Assembly: GCA_016206675.1 (NCBI GenBank)
Contig: JACQRD010000067.1
Coordinates: 1-49,614, forward strand
Direction of reading: 5' to 3'
DNA: 49,614 bases
Source: Candidatus Omnitrophota bacterium
GTDB taxonomy: Bacteria; Omnitrophota; Gorgyraeia; Aquiviventales; Aquiviventaceae
Shown here: piece by piece, positions 5,793 to 48,221 of the stretch
How the letters are laid out: the number at the start of each line of letters is the position of its first letter
Numbering within the stretch: position 1 is the first letter of the stretch
Notes under the pieces: generated by a model
The model's database searches: none
What the model saw: only the letters and a program-made list of their open reading frames with translations
What the model was told of the DNA's origin: nothing
Position numbers and translations under genes: made by a program

Positions 5793-5843
5793 GGGGCTGG
5801 GGGTTCTGGGTTCTGGGCCAATCTTCAACCCTGAACCCTGAAC
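5793..5843 (+). repeat. heptamer-array hairpin (GGGTTCT units, then AACCCTG units)
   Basis: Hand pairing of 5803-5817 with 5829-5843 gives 3+6+4 bp interrupted by two T.T mismatches exactly 7 nt apart. Loop is 5818-5828. Sits between stop 5787 and start 5858. Confidence 0.8.
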
Positions 5844-24520: not shown

Positions 24521-24553
24521 GTGACAGGTGACAGGTGACATGTGTCAGGTCAA
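24521..24553. repeat. tandem heptamers GTGACAG x3 followed by degenerate or inverted units
   Basis: GTGACAG GTGACAG GTGACAT GTGTCAG GTCAA, ending 2 nt from the GH57 start codon. Confidence 0.7.
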
Positions 24554-24560
24554 GACATTA

Positions 24561-24598
24561 ACAAAACAGCCCCCTGGCTCTTGCGAACCAGGGGGCTG
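24561..24598 (-). terminator. rho-independent terminator of the porin-like gene
   Basis: The minus strand reads CAGCCCCCTGG-ttcgcaagag-CCAGGGGGCTG followed by TTTTGT, 19 nt after the stop at 24617. Confidence 0.75.
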
Positions 24599-24616
24599 GG
24601 AAATCACGAACCAAAC

Positions 24617-26303: not shown

Positions 26304-26330
26304 TAGTGGACTCTGCCGGACACGAAAAAG

Positions 26331-26404
26331 TGCCCCAGCGCCGATTCGAACGGCGGACACGCGGTTTAGGAAACCGCTGCTCTTCCATACTGAGCTACTG
26401 GGGC
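26331..26404 (-). tRNA. tRNA-Arg (anticodon CCU)
   Basis: The reverse complement folds as a 74-nt cloverleaf: acceptor GCCCCAG/CTGGGGC, D arm GCTC-AGTATGGAA-GAGC, anticodon arm GCGGT-TTCCTAA-ACCGC, variable GTGTC, T arm CGCCG-TTCGAAT-CGGCG, discriminator A. No encoded CCA. Followed by CTTTTT. Confidence 0.93.
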
Positions 26405-26405
26405 G

Positions 26406-27323
26406 TCAGCGTTTGGACTTTCCATTGCGCATCTTTCCATCGACCATCCGTCTTTTTTCGGCGCCCATCTTCTCTGCGGTACTCTTCCGCGCATCGTCTT
26501 TTATCTTCTGATCTGTTTCTTCTGTCGCGATGAGGGCGCGGAGCTTGCGCATGGCGGCCACCTCGATCTGGCGCACGCGCTCGCGCGTGATGCTGAAAAA
26601 TTTCGCGGTTTCGCCCAGGGTGCGGGAAATGCCGTCATCCAGCCCGTAGCGCAGCACCAGCACCCGCCGCTCGCGCTCGTTCATCTTCTGCAGCAGCGCG
26701 TCGATGCGCTCATGCTGGAGAAAGCGCGTGATCTCCTCCTGCGGGGAGTGGCCGCTCTCATCCTCCAGCAGGTCGATCATCTCGGTCTCCCCTTCCTCGC
26801 CCACCGGCGTTTCGAGGGAGGTGGTCTGCGCCGAGGTCACCAGCTCTTGCAGGCGCTCGATGCGCTCCACCGGCAGGCGCATCCGCCGGGCGAGTTCCAT
26901 GGCGCTCGGACGGCGGCCGAGCTTCTGCGACATCTCCTCGGTGATCCGCTTGAACTTGGAAATCAGCTCCGTCATGTAGACCGGAATGCGCACGGTTTTG
27001 CCCTGGTTGGCGATGGCGCGCGTGATGTACTGGCGGATCCACCAAGCACCGTAGGTGGAGAAGCGAAACCCTTTTCGGGGATTGTACTTGGTCACCGCCT
27101 TCATCAGGCCGAGGTTGCCTTCTTCGATCAGATCGAGCAGCGGCACGCCGAGGTGGGAGTAACGCTTGGCGATGTTGATGACCAGCCGCAGGTTGGAGAG
27201 CGTCATCTGCCGCTTGGCCACCCGGTCGCCCTTCCTGATCTTCCTGGCGAGCTCAATCTCCTGCTTGGCCGTCAGGAGCGGGATGGACTTGATATCCTTG
27301 AGATAGGAACGAATAGGATCCAT
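26406..27323 (-). CDS. RNA polymerase sigma factor, sigma-70 family (RpoD-like, no region 1.1, basic C-terminal tail)
   Basis: ATG 27323 gives MDPIRSYLKDIKSIPLLTAKQE. Region 2 DLIEEGNLGLMKAVTKYNP...FSTYGAWWIRQ. Region 4.2 TLGETAKFFSITRERVRQIEVAAMRKLR. Track start 27536 translates the heptamer repeat. Confidence 0.88.
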   Translation of the reverse strand: MDPIRSYLKDIKSIPLLTAKQEIELARKIRKGDRVAKRQMTLSNLRLVINIAKRYSHLGVPLLDLIEEGNLGLMKAVTKYNPRKGFRFSTYGAWWIRQYITRAIANQGKTVRIPVYMTELISKFKRITEEMSQKLGRRPSAMELARRMRLPVERIERLQELVTSAQTTSLETPVGEEGETEMIDLLEDESGHSPQEEITRFLQHERIDALLQKMNERERRVLVLRYGLDDGISRTLGETAKFFSITRERVRQIEVAAMRKLRALIATEETDQKIKDDARKSTAEKMGAEKRRMVDGKMRNGKSKR

Positions 27324-27328
27324 CGTTA

Positions 27329-27402
27329 GCACACAGCACACAGCACACAGCACACAGTGAAGACGCTCTTGCTGTCTGCTGTCCGCTGTCTGCTGTCTGC
27401 TG
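27329..27402 (-). repeat. heptamer-array hairpin (plus strand: CACACAG x4 ... CTGTCTG x4-5)
   Basis: Arms 27329-27357 and 27371-27402, loop 27358-27370. Each heptamer pairs 6/7; the seventh position is G opposite G in minus-sense RNA. Fills the ppdK stop to sigma start gap. Confidence 0.85.
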
Positions 27403-27405
27403 GCG

Positions 27406-30117
27406 TCATGTCCTTCTCTCGCGGACGACGGCTTGGGCAGCGGCCAGGCGGGCGATCGGCACGCGATACGGCGAGCAGGACACATAGTCCATGCCCACCC
27501 GGTGGCAGAACTCAATGGAGGAGGGCTCGCCGCCATGCTCGCCGCAGATGCCCACCTTCAGCCCCTTGCGCGCCTTGCGGCCCTTGGCGATGCCCAACTG
27601 GATCAGCTGGCCCACGCCCTCCTGATCGAGCTTGGCAAAGGGGTCGGCCGGCAGGATATCTTCCTTCAGGTAGTGCGGCAGGAACTTGCCGATGTCATCC
27701 CGTGAAAAACCGAAGGTCATCTGCGTCAGGTCGTTGGTGCCGAAGCTGAAGAATTCGGCTTCCTTGGCGATGACATCCGCCACCATGGCCGCGCGCGGCA
27801 CCTCGATCATGGTGCCGAGGAGGTATACCAGCTTCACCTTGTAGCGCTCAATCGTCTTCTTGGCGACCTCATCGATAACCTGCTTCGCCGCCCGGAATTC
27901 GTTCGGATGGCCGACCAGCGGGACCATCACTTCGGGCACGATCTTCACTCCGTCCCGCGCCAGCTCGCAGGCGGCCTCAAAGATGGCCTGTGCCTGCATG
28001 TCGTTGATCTCCGGGTAGGTCAGCCCTAAGCGGCAGCCGCGGTGGCCGAGCATCGGGTTGATCTCATGCAGGCTATTGATCGTCTGCCGCAGGACCTTGA
28101 GGTCGATCCCCAGCTGCTTGGAGAGCTTCTCCTGATCCTCTGGATCGTTCGGCAAGAACTCATGCAGGGGCGGATCCAGCAGCCGGATCGTCACCGGCAG
28201 CCCTTTCATCACTTCGAAGAGGCCCTTGAAGTCCTCCTTTTGGAAGGGCGGCAGCTTGGCCAGCGCCGCCTTGCGCGCCGCCACATCGCGCGCCAGGATC
28301 ATCTCGCGCACCACCGGCAGCCGCTCCTCGCCGAAGAACATGTGTTCGGTGCGGCAGAGCCCGATGCCCTCCGCGCCGAATTCGCGGGCCACCTTTGCAT
28401 CCTGCGGGGTGTCGGCGTTGGCCCGGATGCGCAGCCGGCGCACCTGATCGGCCCACTGCAGCAGCTGCTTGAAGCTGCCGGTCAGCTGCGGCTGAACCAC
28501 CGGCACCTCGCCCAGGATCACTTCCCCGGTTGAGCCATTGAGCGTGATGGCGTCCCCTTCCTTAATGACGCGGTCGCCCACCTTAAAGCACTTCGCGTCT
28601 TCTTCAACCGTAATGTCATTGCAGCCGACCACACAGCACTTGCCCATGCCTCGCCCTACAACTGCCGCATGGCTTGTCATCCCCCCGCGCGCGGTCAAAA
28701 TCCCTTGCGCGGCGGCCATGCCTTCGATGTCTTCGGGCGAGGTTTCCTCGCGCACGAGGATGACCTTCTCCGCGCCGTCCTCGCTGAACTCCACCGCCCG
28801 GTGCGCCGTGAAGACGGCCTTGCCCACGGCGGCACCCGGTGAGGCCGGCAGCCCCTTCGCGATGACCTGCGGCTTGGCCCTGGGATCGATCATCGGGTGC
28901 AGCAGTTGGTCGAACTGCGCGGCGTTGATGCGCAGCAAGGCCTCGCGCTGCGAAATCAGCTTCTCCTTCACGAAGTCCACGGCGAACTGCACCGAGGCGC
29001 GGGCGTTGGCTTTGCCGGCGCGGCACTGGAGCATGTAGAGGGCGCCTTCCTCAACCGTAAACTCGATGTCCTGCACCTGCTTGAAGTACCGCTCCAGCCG
29101 CTGGCAGACCTTCCAGAGCTGCTCGTAGAGCTTGGGGAGCTCGGTCTTCAGCTCGGCCACCGGCTTGGGCGTGCGGATGCCGGCGACCACATCCTCCCCT
29201 TGCGCGTTGACCAGGTACTCGCCGTAGAAGACGTTCTCGCCGGTGCCCGGGTCGCGGGTGAAGCAGACGCCGGTCAAGGAGGTCGAGCCCATGTTGCCGA
29301 AGACCATCGACTGGATGTTGACCGCCGTGCCCAGCGAGTGCGGGATGTTGTTGAGGCGGCGGTAGATGTTAGCCCGCTCGTTGTTCCAGGACGTGAAGAC
29401 GGCGTTGACGGCCAGCGTCAATTGTTCCATCACATCTTCCGGAAAGTCGCTGCCCTTCTTGGCGCGGACGAGCTGCTTGTATTCCCCCACCAGCTGCTTC
29501 AGGGCTTCCGCCGGAAGCTGCGCATCCGTCTTGGCATTGAACTTCGCCTTCTTCTTCTGCAGGATCTCCTCAAACTGCTTGTGGTCGATCTCCAGCACCA
29601 CGTTGCTGAACATCTGGATGAAGCGGCGGTAGGCGTCGTAGGCGAAGCGGGGATTCTCGGTCTTCTGGGCGAGGCCCTCCGCCGTGCGGGAGTTCAGGCC
29701 GAGGTTAAGGATGGTGTCCATCATGCCGGGCATGGACACGGCCGCTCCGGAGCGCACCGAAACCAACAGCGGATTCTTGGGATCGCCGAAGCCCTTTTGC
29801 GCCACGGCCTCCAGCCACTTCAGTTTCTGCCGGAGTTCCGCCTCGAGCCCCTGCGGCCAGCGCCCGCCCAGCTCGTAGAATTTCCGACACACCTCGGTGG
29901 TGAGGGTCAGCCCGGGCGGCACCGGCACGCCCAGGTTGGTCATCTCCGCCAGGTTCGCCCCCTTGCCGCCGAGCAGCTGCTTCATGTCGGCGCGGCCGTC
30001 CGCCTTGCCCGCCCCGAAGACATAGATGAAGCGCGGCTTGCTCGCGGAGAGCTGGCCTGCCCTGCGGCGGGTCGCGGGGAAGCGACGGCGGGCTGTGGCA
30101 ACGGACGTCCGGCTCAT
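27406..30117 (-). CDS. ppdK: pyruvate, phosphate dikinase
   Basis: 903 aa. GGKGANLAEM ATP-grasp N-terminus, phosphohistidine motif GGMTSHAAVVGRGMGK, PEP-utiliser C-terminus. ATGA overlap with the glyS stop. Confidence 0.93.
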   Translation of the reverse strand: MSRTSVATARRRFPATRRRAGQLSASKPRFIYVFGAGKADGRADMKQLLGGKGANLAEMTNLGVPVPPGLTLTTEVCRKFYELGGRWPQGLEAELRQKLKWLEAVAQKGFGDPKNPLLVSVRSGAAVSMPGMMDTILNLGLNSRTAEGLAQKTENPRFAYDAYRRFIQMFSNVVLEIDHKQFEEILQKKKAKFNAKTDAQLPAEALKQLVGEYKQLVRAKKGSDFPEDVMEQLTLAVNAVFTSWNNERANIYRRLNNIPHSLGTAVNIQSMVFGNMGSTSLTGVCFTRDPGTGENVFYGEYLVNAQGEDVVAGIRTPKPVAELKTELPKLYEQLWKVCQRLERYFKQVQDIEFTVEEGALYMLQCRAGKANARASVQFAVDFVKEKLISQREALLRINAAQFDQLLHPMIDPRAKPQVIAKGLPASPGAAVGKAVFTAHRAVEFSEDGAEKVILVREETSPEDIEGMAAAQGILTARGGMTSHAAVVGRGMGKCCVVGCNDITVEEDAKCFKVGDRVIKEGDAITLNGSTGEVILGEVPVVQPQLTGSFKQLLQWADQVRRLRIRANADTPQDAKVAREFGAEGIGLCRTEHMFFGEERLPVVREMILARDVAARKAALAKLPPFQKEDFKGLFEVMKGLPVTIRLLDPPLHEFLPNDPEDQEKLSKQLGIDLKVLRQTINSLHEINPMLGHRGCRLGLTYPEINDMQAQAIFEAACELARDGVKIVPEVMVPLVGHPNEFRAAKQVIDEVAKKTIERYKVKLVYLLGTMIEVPRAAMVADVIAKEAEFFSFGTNDLTQMTFGFSRDDIGKFLPHYLKEDILPADPFAKLDQEGVGQLIQLGIAKGRKARKGLKVGICGEHGGEPSSIEFCHRVGMDYVSCSPYRVPIARLAAAQAVVRERRT

Positions 30118-32258
30118 GAGGGCTCCTGTTGTAAGACGGTAAGTTTCGAGAGGTCGGCAACCCGGTCAGTATACAACGCATGGATTGCGCGCATCAAGGC
30201 GAGCCGGTTGCGTTGCAGCGCCTCGTCGGGCACGTTGACCAGCACCTTGTCGAAGAACGTGTGCAGCGGCTCATAGAAGAGCTCTCCGAATTCTAGCGTG
30301 GCTTTGTCGTACAGGCGGTCGGTGATGAGCTTCGCGACCCGCTCCTTATGCTGATCGTACAACCGCCACAGTGCCTGCTCCGGCGGCTCCTTCAGCAGTT
30401 GCGGCTGCACCTGGCCGTCCGCACGCTTGGCCCCTTTGAGGATGTTGCGCGTGCGCTCGATGACCTTCGCGGCCTTCAGCAGCCCGGCCTGGCCGCTCAT
30501 CCGCTGGAGGGTGCGGATGCGGTCCATGGCATCGATCATATCTTCCCATGGACAGGCCAGCACAGCGTCAATACAGTCCGATGAAGGGGCCGGGGATGGC
30601 CAGTTGAAGGTGTAGAGTCTTTCTGCAAGGTAGCTGCGAACACGCTGTTGTACCTTCGCATCAGGTGGCTTTCCAGCAGCCGCCGACCATGCGTTGAACA
30701 GATTCTCAAACAACAGCGGTCGATGCGCAGCCCATGCCACTTCTATGATTCCTTGCGCGGCACGCCGAAGACCAAAAGGATCCTGATCTCCTGTCGGTTC
30801 GATGCCGATGCTAAAGTAACTCGCGAAGGTATCAAATTTGTCCAGGCTAGCTAGTGCAGAACCAATGAGGGTCTTGGGCATCTTACCAGCAAGTGGCAGG
30901 TAGTGCTCCTCGATTGCTTGACACACGGCGTCAGATTCACGATGGATTCTGGCGTAGTATTTCCCCATCACACCCTGCAAAGTCGGAAACTCCCTGACCA
31001 TAACGCTACCAAGGTCAGCCTTGGCAAGCTGGCTGGCCCGTTCAAGCTCTTTGGACTCTTGATTCGTCAGGTTCCACATCTTGCTAAGGTTTCTGCTCAT
31101 CTGGCAGAGGCGGTTGACCTTGTCCTGCACAGAGCCCAACTTTTCGTGGAAGGTGATTCCGGCAGCCTTGACGGCAAGCACGTTTAGTTGCTGTTTAGTG
31201 TCCTGCTCCCAGAACAACAAGCTATCCGCCAGGCGGGCGTTGAGGATACGCTCCACCACCGTGCGCACCTCCGACGGCTTGCCGGGCTTGCCGTCCAGGA
31301 TGGCGACGCAGCGCGGCAGCAGCTTCCCGTTGGCCTCAATGGCGAAAACGCGCTGGTGCTTGGCCATGCTGGCCAGCAGCACTTCGCGCGGCAGGACCAG
31401 ATAGCGCTTATCGAATTCGCCGACCAACGGCACCGGCTCTTCCGTCAAGAAGGTCACTTCCTCCAGCAGGCCGTGGCTGATCATCTCCGCCGCCGTGGTG
31501 CCGCGGAAGGCCTTGGCGGTTTTGGCCACCAGGCTGTCAATGACGGCGCGCCGCTGGCTTGGATCGAGGATCACCCCGACGCGCTTCAGCAGCTTGAAGT
31601 AGGATTCAATGGAGGAAACCGTCGCCCAGCGCAACTGCTGCGGCCGTCCCACGCGTGTCTTAGATTGGCCGGCGATCAAACCGAAGCGGCACGAAACCGC
31701 CTGCGCGCCATAGCGGGCCAGCAGCCAACGGATGGGCCGGGCGAAGCGCACGCCGCTGGCCTCCCAGCGCATACTCTTCGGCGCGCGCAGCTTTGTGATA
31801 AGCTGCGGCAGCAGGGCCGGCAGCAGCTTGACGGTCGGGGTGGTCGTGGGCGGCTTCATGAGGTAGACGTAGTCGCCCTTCGGCGTTGAGACGACTTTGG
31901 TGTGGCGGATGTCTCCGCCTTGCGACTTGAGGAAACCGAGCAGGGCCGGCGTGGGCTTGCCGGAGGCGTCGTAGGAGGCCTGCTTCGAGGGGCCGCGCAC
32001 CTCCTCGCCGGGCTGCTGTTGCACCGCGGAGAGCCCGCGCACGTGTAGCACCAACCGGCGCGGCGTGCCGTACGTCGCTGCCGAGTGGAACGCCAGGTGG
32101 TTGGCTTCACACAGCGTCTTGGCTTCCCGGTCGAGCTGTTCAATCAGCCCAGGCAGGTACGCCGCCGGCAGCTCCTCCGTCCCGATTTCAAAGAGAAGAT
32201 CAGCTGACCGCGAAGCTGGAGGTTGGAGGCTGGAGGCGGGAATGGATTTCTTTTTCAT
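30114..32258 (-). CDS. glyS: glycine--tRNA ligase beta subunit
   Basis: 714 aa. [12 protein letters not shown] near the N-terminus. The first ~20 codons ([18 protein letters not shown]) are read from a heptamer repeat arm. Confidence 0.9.
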
Positions 32259-32287
32259 CCAACTTCCAGCTGCTTGCTTCCAGCTTC
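32212..32287 (-). repeat. heptamer-array hairpin, GAAGCTG family, copy 1, spanning the glyQ stop / glyS start
   Basis: Plus strand: GAAGCTG GAGGTTG GAGGCTG GAGGCGG ... CCAACTT CCAGCTG CTTGCTT CCAGCTTC. Best hand register is 32212-32226 with 32259-32273 (15 nt, 2 mismatches). ATGA 32255-32258 lies at the loop edge. Confidence 0.8.
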
Positions 32288-33132: not shown

Positions 33133-33909
33133 CTAGACCCGAGACCCGTGACTCGCGACCCGAGTCTCGGGTCTCGAGTCTCGAGTCCACCCAGCTAATG
33201 TCTTTAGCGGTCTATCCAGGCGCCAACGCAGGAACTCATCCAGCCGGCGGCGCAATCCTGGCAGCGCGTGAGCATCCAGGGCGATGGGCTGATCGCTCTC
33301 CGAGAGCCGCTCCAAGGTTTCCAACGTGCTGTGCAGCACCGGTTCGGCCTTCGGATCCTCGTGCAGACAGTTGGCGCACAGCAATCCGCCCTGCTGCGCG
33401 CTCCAGTAGCCGGCGTGATGCACCATCGCGCCACACCCGGTGCACTCATCCACCTGCGGCTGAAAGCCGGCCAGCCGCAGAAACCGCACGATGAAATGGG
33501 TCCGGATCATCGCGGGGTCGGATCCGGCCACGGCCAGATGCTCCAGCGCCGACTTCAGCAGCCGGTAGACCGCCGGCTGCGGCTCATTCAGCGGGACGAC
33601 CGTATCCACCAGATCGACGCACAGCGCAGCGCTGCGGGCGACCTCCAGTTCCTGCTGCAGTGCCGCCAGCGGAGCCAGCAGCTCGCATTGGCTGATGAGA
33701 TGGAGCTGGCTGGTGTGCGTGTCGTAGAAGACGATGCGGTTGACCGTCATCGGCTCCATGGCGCTGCGATGGCGGTTCGGCAGCTGGCGCAACCCCTTGA
33801 TGAGCCCTTTCAGCTTGCCGTAGCGGTCCGTCAGGCAGCTGACTACGACGCTGGTTTCACGGTAGAAATACCGGCGCAGGACGATGGCATCTGCTGCATG
33901 AATGCCCAT
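33133..33909 (-). CDS. recO: DNA repair protein RecO
   Basis: ATG 33909 gives [27 protein letters not shown]. Cys cluster CTGCG...CANC. The C-terminal ~17 residues are encoded by a repeat. Confidence 0.85.
33135..33188 (-). repeat. heptamer-array hairpin, GACCCGA/GTCTCGA family, copy 1
   Basis: AGACCCGAGACCCGTGACTCGCGACCCGAGTCTCGGGTCTCGAGTCTCGAGTCC with a perfect central hairpin GACCCGA-gtc-TCGGGTC. About 95% identical to 33914-33967. Confidence 0.85.
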
Positions 33910-33911
33910 TG

Positions 33912-34427
33912 TTAGACCCGAGACCCGTGACTCGTGACCCGAGTCCCGAGTCTCGAGTCTCGAGTCCAACGCTTGGTATCTTCCGAACAGTTCGCCAATA
34001 GTCTATCTTCCAACTTTCGCATTTCTCGTTGCTGGGTGAGCGTGCGGTCGTCATGGCCGAGCCAGTGCAAAATGCCATGGACGACGTAGCGCGAGAGCTC
34101 CTGCGCGTACGACACGCCGTGGGCCTGGGCGTAGCGCTGCGCTTCCTTGGGTGCGACGAGCACCTCGCCGACAACCTGCCTGCGCCGTAGCGGCGCAGGC
34201 CAGCAGGTCGGCTCTCCCTCATACCGGAAACTGAGCACGTCGGTGGAGCGGTCGTGGCGCGTAAACCGGCGGTTGAGGCGGCGCATGCGCCCGGTGTCAA
34301 TGAAGGTGATGGCCAGCTCCCCGCCGCCACGGATCTTCAGCCGCCGCACCGCGGCGCGCGCCAGCTGTCGCATCCGGGCGGCGCTGACCGGGGCTTGCCG
34401 CTGGGCGTTGGTCACCCGCACCCGCAT
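33912..34427 (-). CDS. ybeY: rRNA maturation RNase YbeY
   Basis: HGILHWLGHDD zinc motif. The C-terminal tail TRDSRLGTRVTSHGSRV is encoded by a repeat. 1-nt TGATG overlap with phoH. Confidence 0.88.
   Translation of the reverse strand: MRVRVTNAQRQAPVSAARMRQLARAAVRRLKIRGGGELAITFIDTGRMRRLNRRFTRHDRSTDVLSFRYEGEPTCWPAPLRRRQVVGEVLVAPKEAQRYAQAHGVSYAQELSRYVVHGILHWLGHDDRTLTQQREMRKLEDRLLANCSEDTKRWTRDSRLGTRVTSHGSRV
33914..33967 (-). repeat. heptamer-array hairpin, GACCCGA/GTCTCGA family, copy 2
   Basis: AGACCCGAGACCCGTGACTCGTGACCCGAGTCCCGAGTCTCGAGTCTCGAGTCC, lying between the ybeY stop and the recO start. Confidence 0.85.
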
Positions 34428-35386: not shown

Positions 35387-35395
35387 CGCAATACG

Positions 35396-35472
35396 GAAGC
35401 TGGACGTTGGAAGCTAGAAGCTGGAACAAGCCATGCGTTCTTTCCAGCTTCCAGCCTCCTGCTTCCAGCTTC
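35396..35472 (-). repeat. heptamer-array hairpin, GAAGCTG family, copy 2
   Basis: GGAAGCT GGACGTT GGAAGCT AGAAGCT GGAAC ... TTCCAGC TTCCAGC CTCCTGC TTCCAGC TTC. Both ends are homologous to 32212-32287. Confidence 0.8.
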
Positions 35473-38790: not shown

Positions 38791-38866
38791 ATTGCGGATT
38801 GCGGAATGCGGATTGCGGATTTGGAAAGCCGAAAATCCGAACTCCGCAATCCGAAATCCGCAATTA
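38791..38866 (-). repeat. heptamer-array hairpin (ATTGCGG units ... TCCGCAA units)
   Basis: ATTGCGG ATTGCGG AATGCGG ATTGCGG ATTTGGA aagccgaaaa TCCGAAC TCCGCAA TCCGAAA TCCGCAA TT, lying between the HU stop and the hisS start. Confidence 0.85.
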
Positions 38867-47610: not shown

Positions 47611-48221
47611 GGAGTCCGGGCAGGCCCGAAGCGATCGGCGTCGGGTGTTCGCTGCGGCGGCTCGGCCCGGATCGGAAGCGAGGCGCTCAATTCGGCCGAT
47701 CCTGGAATGCACACGTCATGGCAGGCCAACCATTCGACCTTGGCCTGCAGCGGCAGCGGGTTATCTACGCGCTCCTTCCCTGTGACATGCAGCCGGCTGG
47801 AGAGCAGCACCTCGCCGCGATACCCGCGCGTGTGGATCTCTCCGGGGTCGACAAACTCCTCGGCCGGCGGCCACTCGAGGGGGCCGAAGATCTCTCCGCC
47901 GGCCCGCCGCCACGTCACTTTCGTCGGCATGCCGGCATCACCCGGCTCTTGCGCATAGATGTGCCAGCCGTCCTTGATTGTGAACAGCACGCCGACTCTG
48001 GTATCGCCCGGCAGCTGAACCGAGGCGTGCTCTGTCATCAGCTCAGCCGTCACTGGCTGCTCCTTCGGCGCAGCAAACTGCACATTCGGCCGTTGTTGTT
48101 CCGCCTGGCTGGGTTTCGCTCCGCACCCCAGCATCGCCGTAATCGCCACCGCTCCGATAAAGAGGTGCGCTCTCCGGCCTTTGCTGTCTGCTGTTTGCTG
48201 TCTGCTGTTTGCTAAAGTCAT
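47607..48221 (-). CDS. lipoprotein with DsbD N-terminal-like (DsbC/PF11412-like) domain
   Basis: ATG 48221 in an ATGA overlap with the guaA stop. Lipobox [27 protein letters not shown]...[11 protein letters not shown] resembles the thiol:disulfide interchange DsbD-N fold. Confidence 0.55.
48181..48213 (-). repeat. tandem heptamers (plus strand: TTGCTGT CTGCTGT x2.5) inside the first 14 codons of the lipoprotein gene
   Basis: Minus sense reads AGCAAAC AGCAGAC AGCAAAC AGCAGAC AGCAA, the same unit family as one arm of the 27329-27402 hairpin. No complementary arm nearby. Confidence 0.8.

Follow-up and report, generated by a model that had tools for sequence, protein, structure and literature searches.

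The hairpin between ppdK and a sigma factor gene in a Candidatus Omnitrophota genome is probably one copy of a dispersed palindromic repeat, tolerated because translational coupling between the two genes has been kept, and not a regulator specific to the sigma gene. This genome-level account replaces the single-gene story of a hairpin gating a sigma factor. In a streamlined genome, where 853 of 941 adjacent gene pairs (91%) are co-directional, repeat hairpins invade the junctions between stop and start codons, and the retained copies tend to carry a frame along which ribosomes could pass.

The hairpin and its operon

The window analysed here is a stretch of 49,614 nucleotides from a groundwater Candidatus Omnitrophota MAG (G000: 1.1 Mb, 97 contigs, 78% complete). 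Its minus strand carries an operon-like array in the order glyQ-glyS-ppdK-sigma-tRNA-Arg. The ppdK gene (27406..30117, minus strand) encodes a pyruvate phosphate dikinase of 903 aa (Pfam PPDK_N, PEP-utilizers, and PEP-utilizers_C, E 1e-83), and ends in a TGA stop codon at 27406-27408; the identity of GlyS, encoded upstream, was confirmed with Pfam. The sigma-70 family gene (26406..27323, minus strand) encodes a Group-2-like protein of 305 aa that lacks region 1.1 and matches the Pfam Sigma70 models r1.2, r2, r3, and r4. Pfam places the beginning of region 1.2 at residue 2, the ATG lies at 27323-27321, and orthologues share the MDPI start. By NCBIfam, the protein is RpoD/RpoS-like, below the equivalog cut-offs. 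The final member of the co-directional array is a gene for tRNA-Arg(CCU) (26330..26404, minus strand; ARAGORN), 1 nt past the sigma stop codon.

An intergenic gap of 82 nt separates the ppdK stop from the sigma start. In mRNA sense, the 5' arm of the hairpin (27370..27402, minus strand) contains 4.7 units of AGCAGAC, one of them the variant AGCGGAC (Tandem Repeats Finder, period 7, 92% matches); the loop region (27358..27369, minus strand) folds into a small inner stem, AAGA/UCUU; and the 3' arm (27328..27357, minus strand) contains 4.3 units of CUGUGUG and ends in GCUA (period 7, 100% matches). On the plus strand, Tandem Repeats Finder gives the units as AGCACAC (27328-27357) and TGCTGTC (27370-27402). 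A separate repeat search delimits arms of 30 nt each, 83% complementary, with about 12-14 nt between them. The arrays leave 3 nt after the ppdK TGA and 4-5 nt ahead of the sigma ATG.

The minus-strand RNA has a predicted folding energy of -53.2 kcal/mol, compared with -34.4 +/- 3.5 for shuffled sequences (z -5.4; none of 200 shuffles folded as well). Blocks of six pairs are parted by four 1x1 G.G loops, and the variant unit contributes one G.U pair. The original prediction had described the paired (AGCAGAC)n and (CUGUGUG)n arms, a G opposite G in each unit, and a hairpin that fills the gap; repeat finding, sequence, and fold bear out all three. The plus strand folds nearly as well (-51.5 kcal/mol, z -5.8). 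As for an intrinsic terminator, the hairpin has no U tract (its tail is CUAACGAUGG) and a terminator scan was negative. An Rfam search with the hairpin gave no match at threshold; the best scored 23 bits against 90 (generic miRNA-hairpin models).

Throughout the phylum, ppdK and the sigma gene stay neighbours, and their stop and start codons often abut or overlap; promoter and terminator scans of the gap revealed no promoter-like or terminator-like site. These observations support the earlier suggestion that sigma expression must pass through the element; almost certainly, it has to traverse the hairpin sequence. The same suggestion had pointed to the absence of an SD sequence. There is indeed none in the cuaacgAUG between the hairpin and the start codon, but this carries little weight as evidence, because SD cores are found at only about 21% of predicted starts in G000 (11% background) and because the ppdK-sigma gaps of hairpin-free orthologues, at 0-10 nt, have no room for an intergenic SD. 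(A split SD, in which AAGGA of the ppdK tail would be folded near the AUG, was considered and rejected; it is not conserved in the relative L135 or in others.)

Heptamer hairpins in the genome and at the orthologous junction

The ppdK-sigma hairpin fits a class defined as two inverted arrays of three to six tandem 7-nt units with a short loop. G000 contains 266 period-7 arrays, compared with 3-33 for periods 5, 6, 8, and 9. A slightly looser cut yields 321 period-7 arrays, 100 inverted pairs, and about 50 unit-pair families. At least six more heptamer hairpins, from other unit families, lie in the window (5801-5843, 32215-32287, 33135-33188, 33914-33967, 35395-35472, and 38791-38864); five of these are at junctions of the same 24-kb minus-strand gene array, including the glyQ-glyS junction.

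The AGCAGAC/CTGTGTG family has about 26 copies in G000. The copies share the termini [T/C]AGCAGAC...GTGTGCTA, often extended by CGT/ACG, and have loops that differ in sequence and length (about 10 to 45 nt). The family occurs in both orientations with respect to transcription: the mismatch reads C.C in the mRNA of 10 copies and G.G in that of 6. In the related genus represented by G016, an AGCACAC/CTGTGTG hairpin has complementary consensus units; these sequences suggest a master copy as the source of the G.G that the G000 family carries.

The hairpins show one free column per heptamer, a 6+1 rule. Counted by copies, the number of mismatches per unit is zero in 2, one in 62, and two in 22; counted by families, the corresponding numbers are 2, 22, and 16. 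Among units within an arm, the mismatch column varies in 10.0% and the pairing columns in 1.7% (odds ratio 6.5, p = 4e-26), in a test that is partly circular because variable columns are likelier to differ between arms. On the mRNA strand, 10 mismatches are G.U and 13 are A.C; this lack of asymmetry gives no sign of pairing selected specifically in sense RNA.

With genes called by a self-trained codon score (crude, especially for starts), 57 hairpins lie between co-directional genes, 5 between convergent genes, 3 between divergent genes, 13 inside called ORFs, and 8 at contig ends. Median distances are 10 nt from the upstream stop to the array and 14 nt from the array to the downstream start, and the median span is 69 nt. 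Hairpin-free junctions have a median gap of 32 nt, with a quarter overlapping. Several contigs of G000 start or finish in such repeats. Strict heptamer hairpins are missing from 288 co-directional gaps of 40-200 nt, yet 141 of those gaps have strong folds; many of these contain other palindromic families, such as CCCACCACCTG...CAGGTGGTGGG and GTGACGT/ACGTAACC-type repeats.

T-rich tails are present at only 2 of the 57 co-directional hairpins, and a textbook intrinsic terminator exists nearby: CCCAGCCCCCTGG...CCAGGGGGCTG followed by TTTTGTT, past an alginate-export-like gene (24555-24605, minus strand). The heptamer hairpins are therefore not this organism's terminators. Beyond that terminator are a TTGACC box and three TGTCACC units that form a solo heptamer array (24521-24550), which reaches the start of a GH57 gene.

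At the orthologous ppdK-sigma junction, about 140 distinct sequences were compared. The junction is short in 57 (-25 to 34 nt, some with ATGA or TGATG overlaps), and in the other 84 it is occupied by 40-190 nt. The occupants are many unrelated periodic-arm hairpins, plus some plain hairpins and half-elements. Period-7 families include GATTTTG, GAGACAT, AGTTTCG, GTCCATA, AGTGATC, and GGTTCAA; period-8 families include GCTCGTCA and, in low-GC lineages, GGTCACAA. Gap lengths of the occupied junctions show no clear preference modulo 3 (22/18/9, p = 0.07). Genera differ in whether a given junction has a hairpin.

The two closest relatives, each with 92% sigma identity, differ from each other. L206 has an empty site, with 9 nt between TAA and ATG. 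L135 has the same insertion within the same flanks (ATGACG... and ...GCTAACGATGGATCC), 21 nt shorter, with decayed arms that are 60-72% identical to the family consensus, compared with 94-100% in the G000 copy. Third codon positions of its flanking genes are 69% identical, and its stem has collapsed (-22 kcal/mol, z -1.8). By this comparison, the insertion probably predates the split between G000 and L135, and the G000 copy may have been held at consensus by either concerted evolution or re-invasion. The pattern of empty, decayed, and intact sites is unlike that of a conserved sigma-specific regulator. The proposal that sigma has its own gate, processing site, or barrier to coupling here is not supported: the element is multi-copy, and its junction is empty, decayed, or otherwise occupied in relatives.

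Units of 8 nt (GGTCACAA, GCTCGTCA, and GGTTAGCG-like) in a paired-array architecture were seen at L049/L207, L065, L089, L042/L169/L191, and in G121 (L219-L220). Half-elements, with one arm only or degenerate, were seen at L172, L175, L003, and in the window itself, where a solo arm of the AGCAGAC/CTGTGTG family (48180..48213, plus strand; Tandem Repeats Finder) has 4.6 units of TGCTGTC/TGCTGTT, ends in GCTAA, and has no partner; such half-elements indicate that hairpins decay via arm loss. Finally, a recurrent short motif, CGAGCGAAGCGAGGCG(TG), which contains a GCGAAGC mini-hairpin core, separates the downstream ATG from several heptamer hairpins that are unrelated to one another: just ahead of the sigma ATG at L040, L176, L030, L181, and L146, and in G000 at C27:1244-1370.

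Among the sampled relatives, array density lies between 0 and about 10 per 100 kb; in G000 it reaches about 29, a pattern that resembles a burst specific to this lineage. The flanks of the AGCAGAC/CTGTGTG copies show no target-site duplication. A Y1 transposase (PF01797) was not found in G000 at its 78% completeness. Y1 genes (IS200/RAYT-like) are present in 24 of 31 genomes searched, with 1-5 matches each in open frames of 200-270 aa. A link to RAYT was rejected: 14 Y1 loci of relatives have no heptamer array within 1.5 kb, and no such locus was found in G000. A literature search on Omnitrophota repeats and heptamer hairpins turned up no account of this hairpin class.

A bridging frame and its competing explanations

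The gap contains a relay mini-ORF of 27 codons, MTPADSRQRTADSKSVFTVCCVLCAVC (27326..27409, minus strand; identified from translation, ORF listing, and a frame check). Its ATG (27409-27407) overlaps the ppdK TGA as ATGA; its TAA (27328-27326) is 2 nt ahead of the sigma ATG (TAA-cg-ATG); and the frame between them crosses both arms. The GCUA end of the 3' arm provides the UA of the stop codon; the sense frames of the 82-nt gap contain no other stop. L135 keeps the frame, at 20 codons, with the same start and stop; this retention taken alone could be chance, an outcome on the unlikely side.

Bridging frames were scored by a common rule: the start had to fall between -10 and +12 nt relative to the ppdK stop, and the in-frame stop between -15 and +4 nt relative to the sigma start. 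High-GC family junctions were those with sigma identity of at least 75%, and the control was the reverse-complemented spacer between the same flanks. Bridging frames are present at 30 of 49 occupied high-GC family junctions, compared with 4 of 49 in the control (Fisher p = 3e-8) and 4.4 +/- 1.9 (maximum 12) in shuffled junctions. Under a strict rule (ATG only, tighter spacing), the numbers are 19 of 49 and 1 of 49 (p = 6e-6), with 1.4 +/- 1.1 in shuffles. The 30 positive junctions represent at least 15 unrelated unit families, so they do not reflect a single inherited event. Low-GC relatives have no relay frame at any of 35 occupied junctions (control, 3 of 35; shuffles, 1.2 +/- 1.1).

Genome-wide, G000 has bridging frames at 12 of 57 hairpins, compared with 2 of 57 in the antisense mirror (p = 0.008), or 14 of 50 compared with 3 of 50 after refinement; these counts are limited by crude gene calls and start predictions. 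Thus, about one quarter of the co-directional hairpins in G000 carry the frame, a proportion that counts against the relay. Among co-directional copies of the AGCAGAC family, only 4 of 16 do so (C9, C51, C76, and C87).

Coupling and reinitiation peak in efficiency at spacings between -4 and +3 nt, and coupling falls 3- to 10-fold as spacing grows to about +40 nt (PMC12548453). Both spacings at the locus, -4 and +2, are within the efficient window. An 82-nt insertion alone would break ppdK-sigma coupling, and the mini-ORF would restore it as two efficient junctions. From the arrangement of codons we infer the following use: a ribosome ending at the ppdK UGA would restart on the overlapping AUG (AUGA, spacing -4); translate the stop-free 27-codon frame across both arms, melting the stem; terminate at the UAA 2 nt ahead of the sigma AUG; and reinitiate there. 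The folded stem may additionally shield the 82-nt spacer from Rho loading and nucleases. A stem of about -50 kcal/mol that begins 4 nt past the ppdK stop could just as well stall the terminating ribosome instead.

The bridging mini-ORF links the ppdK stop to the sigma start, and such a design is enriched at occupied junctions. Both features run counter to the original prediction of an uncoupling barrier; the sequence evidence points to coupling preserved. The best reading, then, is that of a selfish or tolerated palindromic repeat that would persist through coupling, in the manner of a MIRU.

Conceivably, though this is the more doubtful reading, heptamer hairpins are frame-tunable relay cassettes whose 6+1 pattern comes from a dedicated recognition or spreading mechanism. 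Because seven is not divisible by three, a one-unit slippage would reset the reading frame. With stop-free arms and a terminal GCUA(A/G) stop, any copy could evolve a bridging ORF. Along that ORF, ribosomes leaving the upstream stop would reach the next start through a spacer that folds on itself and is proof against Rho, and the tight gene junctions of a streamlined genome would thereby be open to massive colonisation.

It is unlikely that the hairpin class as a whole is instead beneficial to its host, as a REP-like stabiliser of mRNA within operons, through selective RNA processing and stabilisation, or a shield against Rho, with the mini-ORF secondary. Such a role would suit hairpins that lie 1-30 nt past stop codons within long co-directional arrays and whose paired columns are conserved (1.7% variation, compared with 10.0% in the free column). 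It would also suit genomes with Rho, which is present in 12 of 13 searched. An RNase III domain (PF14622/PF00636) was not found in 19 of 19 family genomes and 14 of 16 high-quality class genomes searched, nor, counted over the class, in 29 of 31 genomes searched, G000 included; long stems would therefore escape cleavage. A Clostridium operon in which intergenic stem-loops set subunit ratios (PMC4423207) also counts in favor. However, occupancy of co-directional junctions is no higher than that of others (58 of 853 compared with 7 of 88, p = 0.66), a result that rejects operon specificity; occupancy of a given junction is not conserved between genera; both orientations are found; and density differs at least tenfold between related genomes, as expected of bursts of selfish repeats.

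RNase III loss would be unusual among bacteria; across the phylum sample the domain is present in 72 of 121, split cleanly by family. Such loss was considered as an enabler of the hairpins and rejected: the densities of long hairpins are 2.9 per 100 kb in samples with RNase III and 6.6 per 100 kb in those without (Mann-Whitney p = 0.19), and the RNase III-positive genome G121 carries period-8 hairpins.

Less probable again is a neutral repeat, generated and homogenised at the DNA level by replication slippage and gene conversion, whose hairpin and mini-ORF are without consequence and merely reflect stop-poor, GC-rich sequence. Concerted evolution of this kind fits the near-consensus arms of the G000 copy alongside decay of L135 at an approximately neutral rate; solo arms and half-elements exist; and no orientation or strand-specific RNA signal was found. 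However, the composition-matched controls and shuffles fail to reproduce the 30 of 49 bridging frames. Moreover, arm pairs with perfect complementarity are nearly absent (2 of 100), and units vary in a single column only; both observations argue for some constraint.

Weakest is the idea of a dedicated cis-regulator of sigma, a processing or stability site or a barrier that separates sigma expression from the glyQS-ppdK transcript, which is very improbable: the stem is very stable and flush with both codons, the ATG has no SD, and a sigma factor plausibly is needed far below the level of PPDK, but about 26 copies of the same family stand at unrelated junctions in both orientations, close relatives have this junction empty or filled with unrelated or decayed hairpins, enriched bridging ORFs argue for coupling, and G.U and A.C mismatches show no RNA-sense asymmetry.

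If the relay through a tolerated repeat is true, these junctions amount to an experiment that nature has repeated on the reach of translational coupling and the means of extending it. The relay would also explain how selfish DNA lives within essential operons. Finally, it would alert annotators to this repeat class as the source, in Omnitrophota MAGs, of many "intergenic regulators," odd protein termini, and contig breaks.

Known systems compared

MIRUs (Supply et al. 1997, as reviewed by Brown & Wade 2025, PMC12548453) are short repeats scattered within operons. In the review's account, they are tolerated because each brings its own ORF, coupled at -4 spacing to the host gene, so that insertion has little effect on expression. 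The Omnitrophota element likewise has an internal ORF that abuts or overlaps the flanking stop and start. The likeness is one of architecture. To our knowledge, MIRUs are made neither of tandem heptamers nor of long hairpins. MIRUs are fixed in orientation with respect to translation, whereas the AGCAGAC family is found both ways (10 and 6 copies), and the relay frame is present in only about 25-60% of Omnitrophota copies.

The Xanthomonas GGGAATC or (GGGANTN)n arrays form 70-75 convergent inverted pairs per genome (Rehm et al. 2015, PMC4692102). Most have four heptamers, lie on average 28 nt from the upstream ORF, and stand between co-directional genes; the same genes are not occupied across species, and some unit positions are variable (PMC4692102). 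Inverted intergenic arrays of about four heptamers near the upstream ORF are also what the Omnitrophota locus presents. However, Xanthomonas has one G-rich unit with quadruplex potential; Omnitrophota has about 50 unit-pair families that are not G-rich, and the AGCAGAC/CTGTGTG units contain no G tracts. Regular 6+1 pairing, the filling of whole stop-to-start gaps, and the frequent bridging ORF further distinguish the Omnitrophota hairpins.

The REP, BIME, and REPIN elements of Enterobacteria and Pseudomonas share several properties with the Omnitrophota hairpins: hundreds of imperfect intergenic palindromes, in operons, in either orientation, that fold in mRNA. REP elements can stabilise the upstream message. 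Their arms contain no tandem repeats, and the one or few sequence families of each genome are tied to a REP-flanked RAYT gene. In contrast, no Y1 gene was found in G000, and those of its relatives have no adjoining heptamer arrays.

Co-transcribed MITEs (Neisseria Correia/NEMIS, ERIC, and RUP) also are small, palindromic, non-autonomous insertions at gene boundaries, and orthologous sites differ in whether they have one. A MITE ends in defined inverted repeats, duplicates its target site, and has a conserved interior. The Omnitrophota arm, in contrast, is a heptamer array throughout, its loop is the least conserved part, and no duplication was seen.

Finally, the STRR heptanucleotides of cyanobacteria and the TAACTGA repeat of Beggiatoaceae are abundant intergenic tandem heptamers (PMC4679880). 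Those are mainly direct arrays, whereas the Omnitrophota arrays are paired, inverted, and hairpin-forming. Moreover, the TAACTGA repeat places stop codons in every frame; the Omnitrophota units are largely stop-free.
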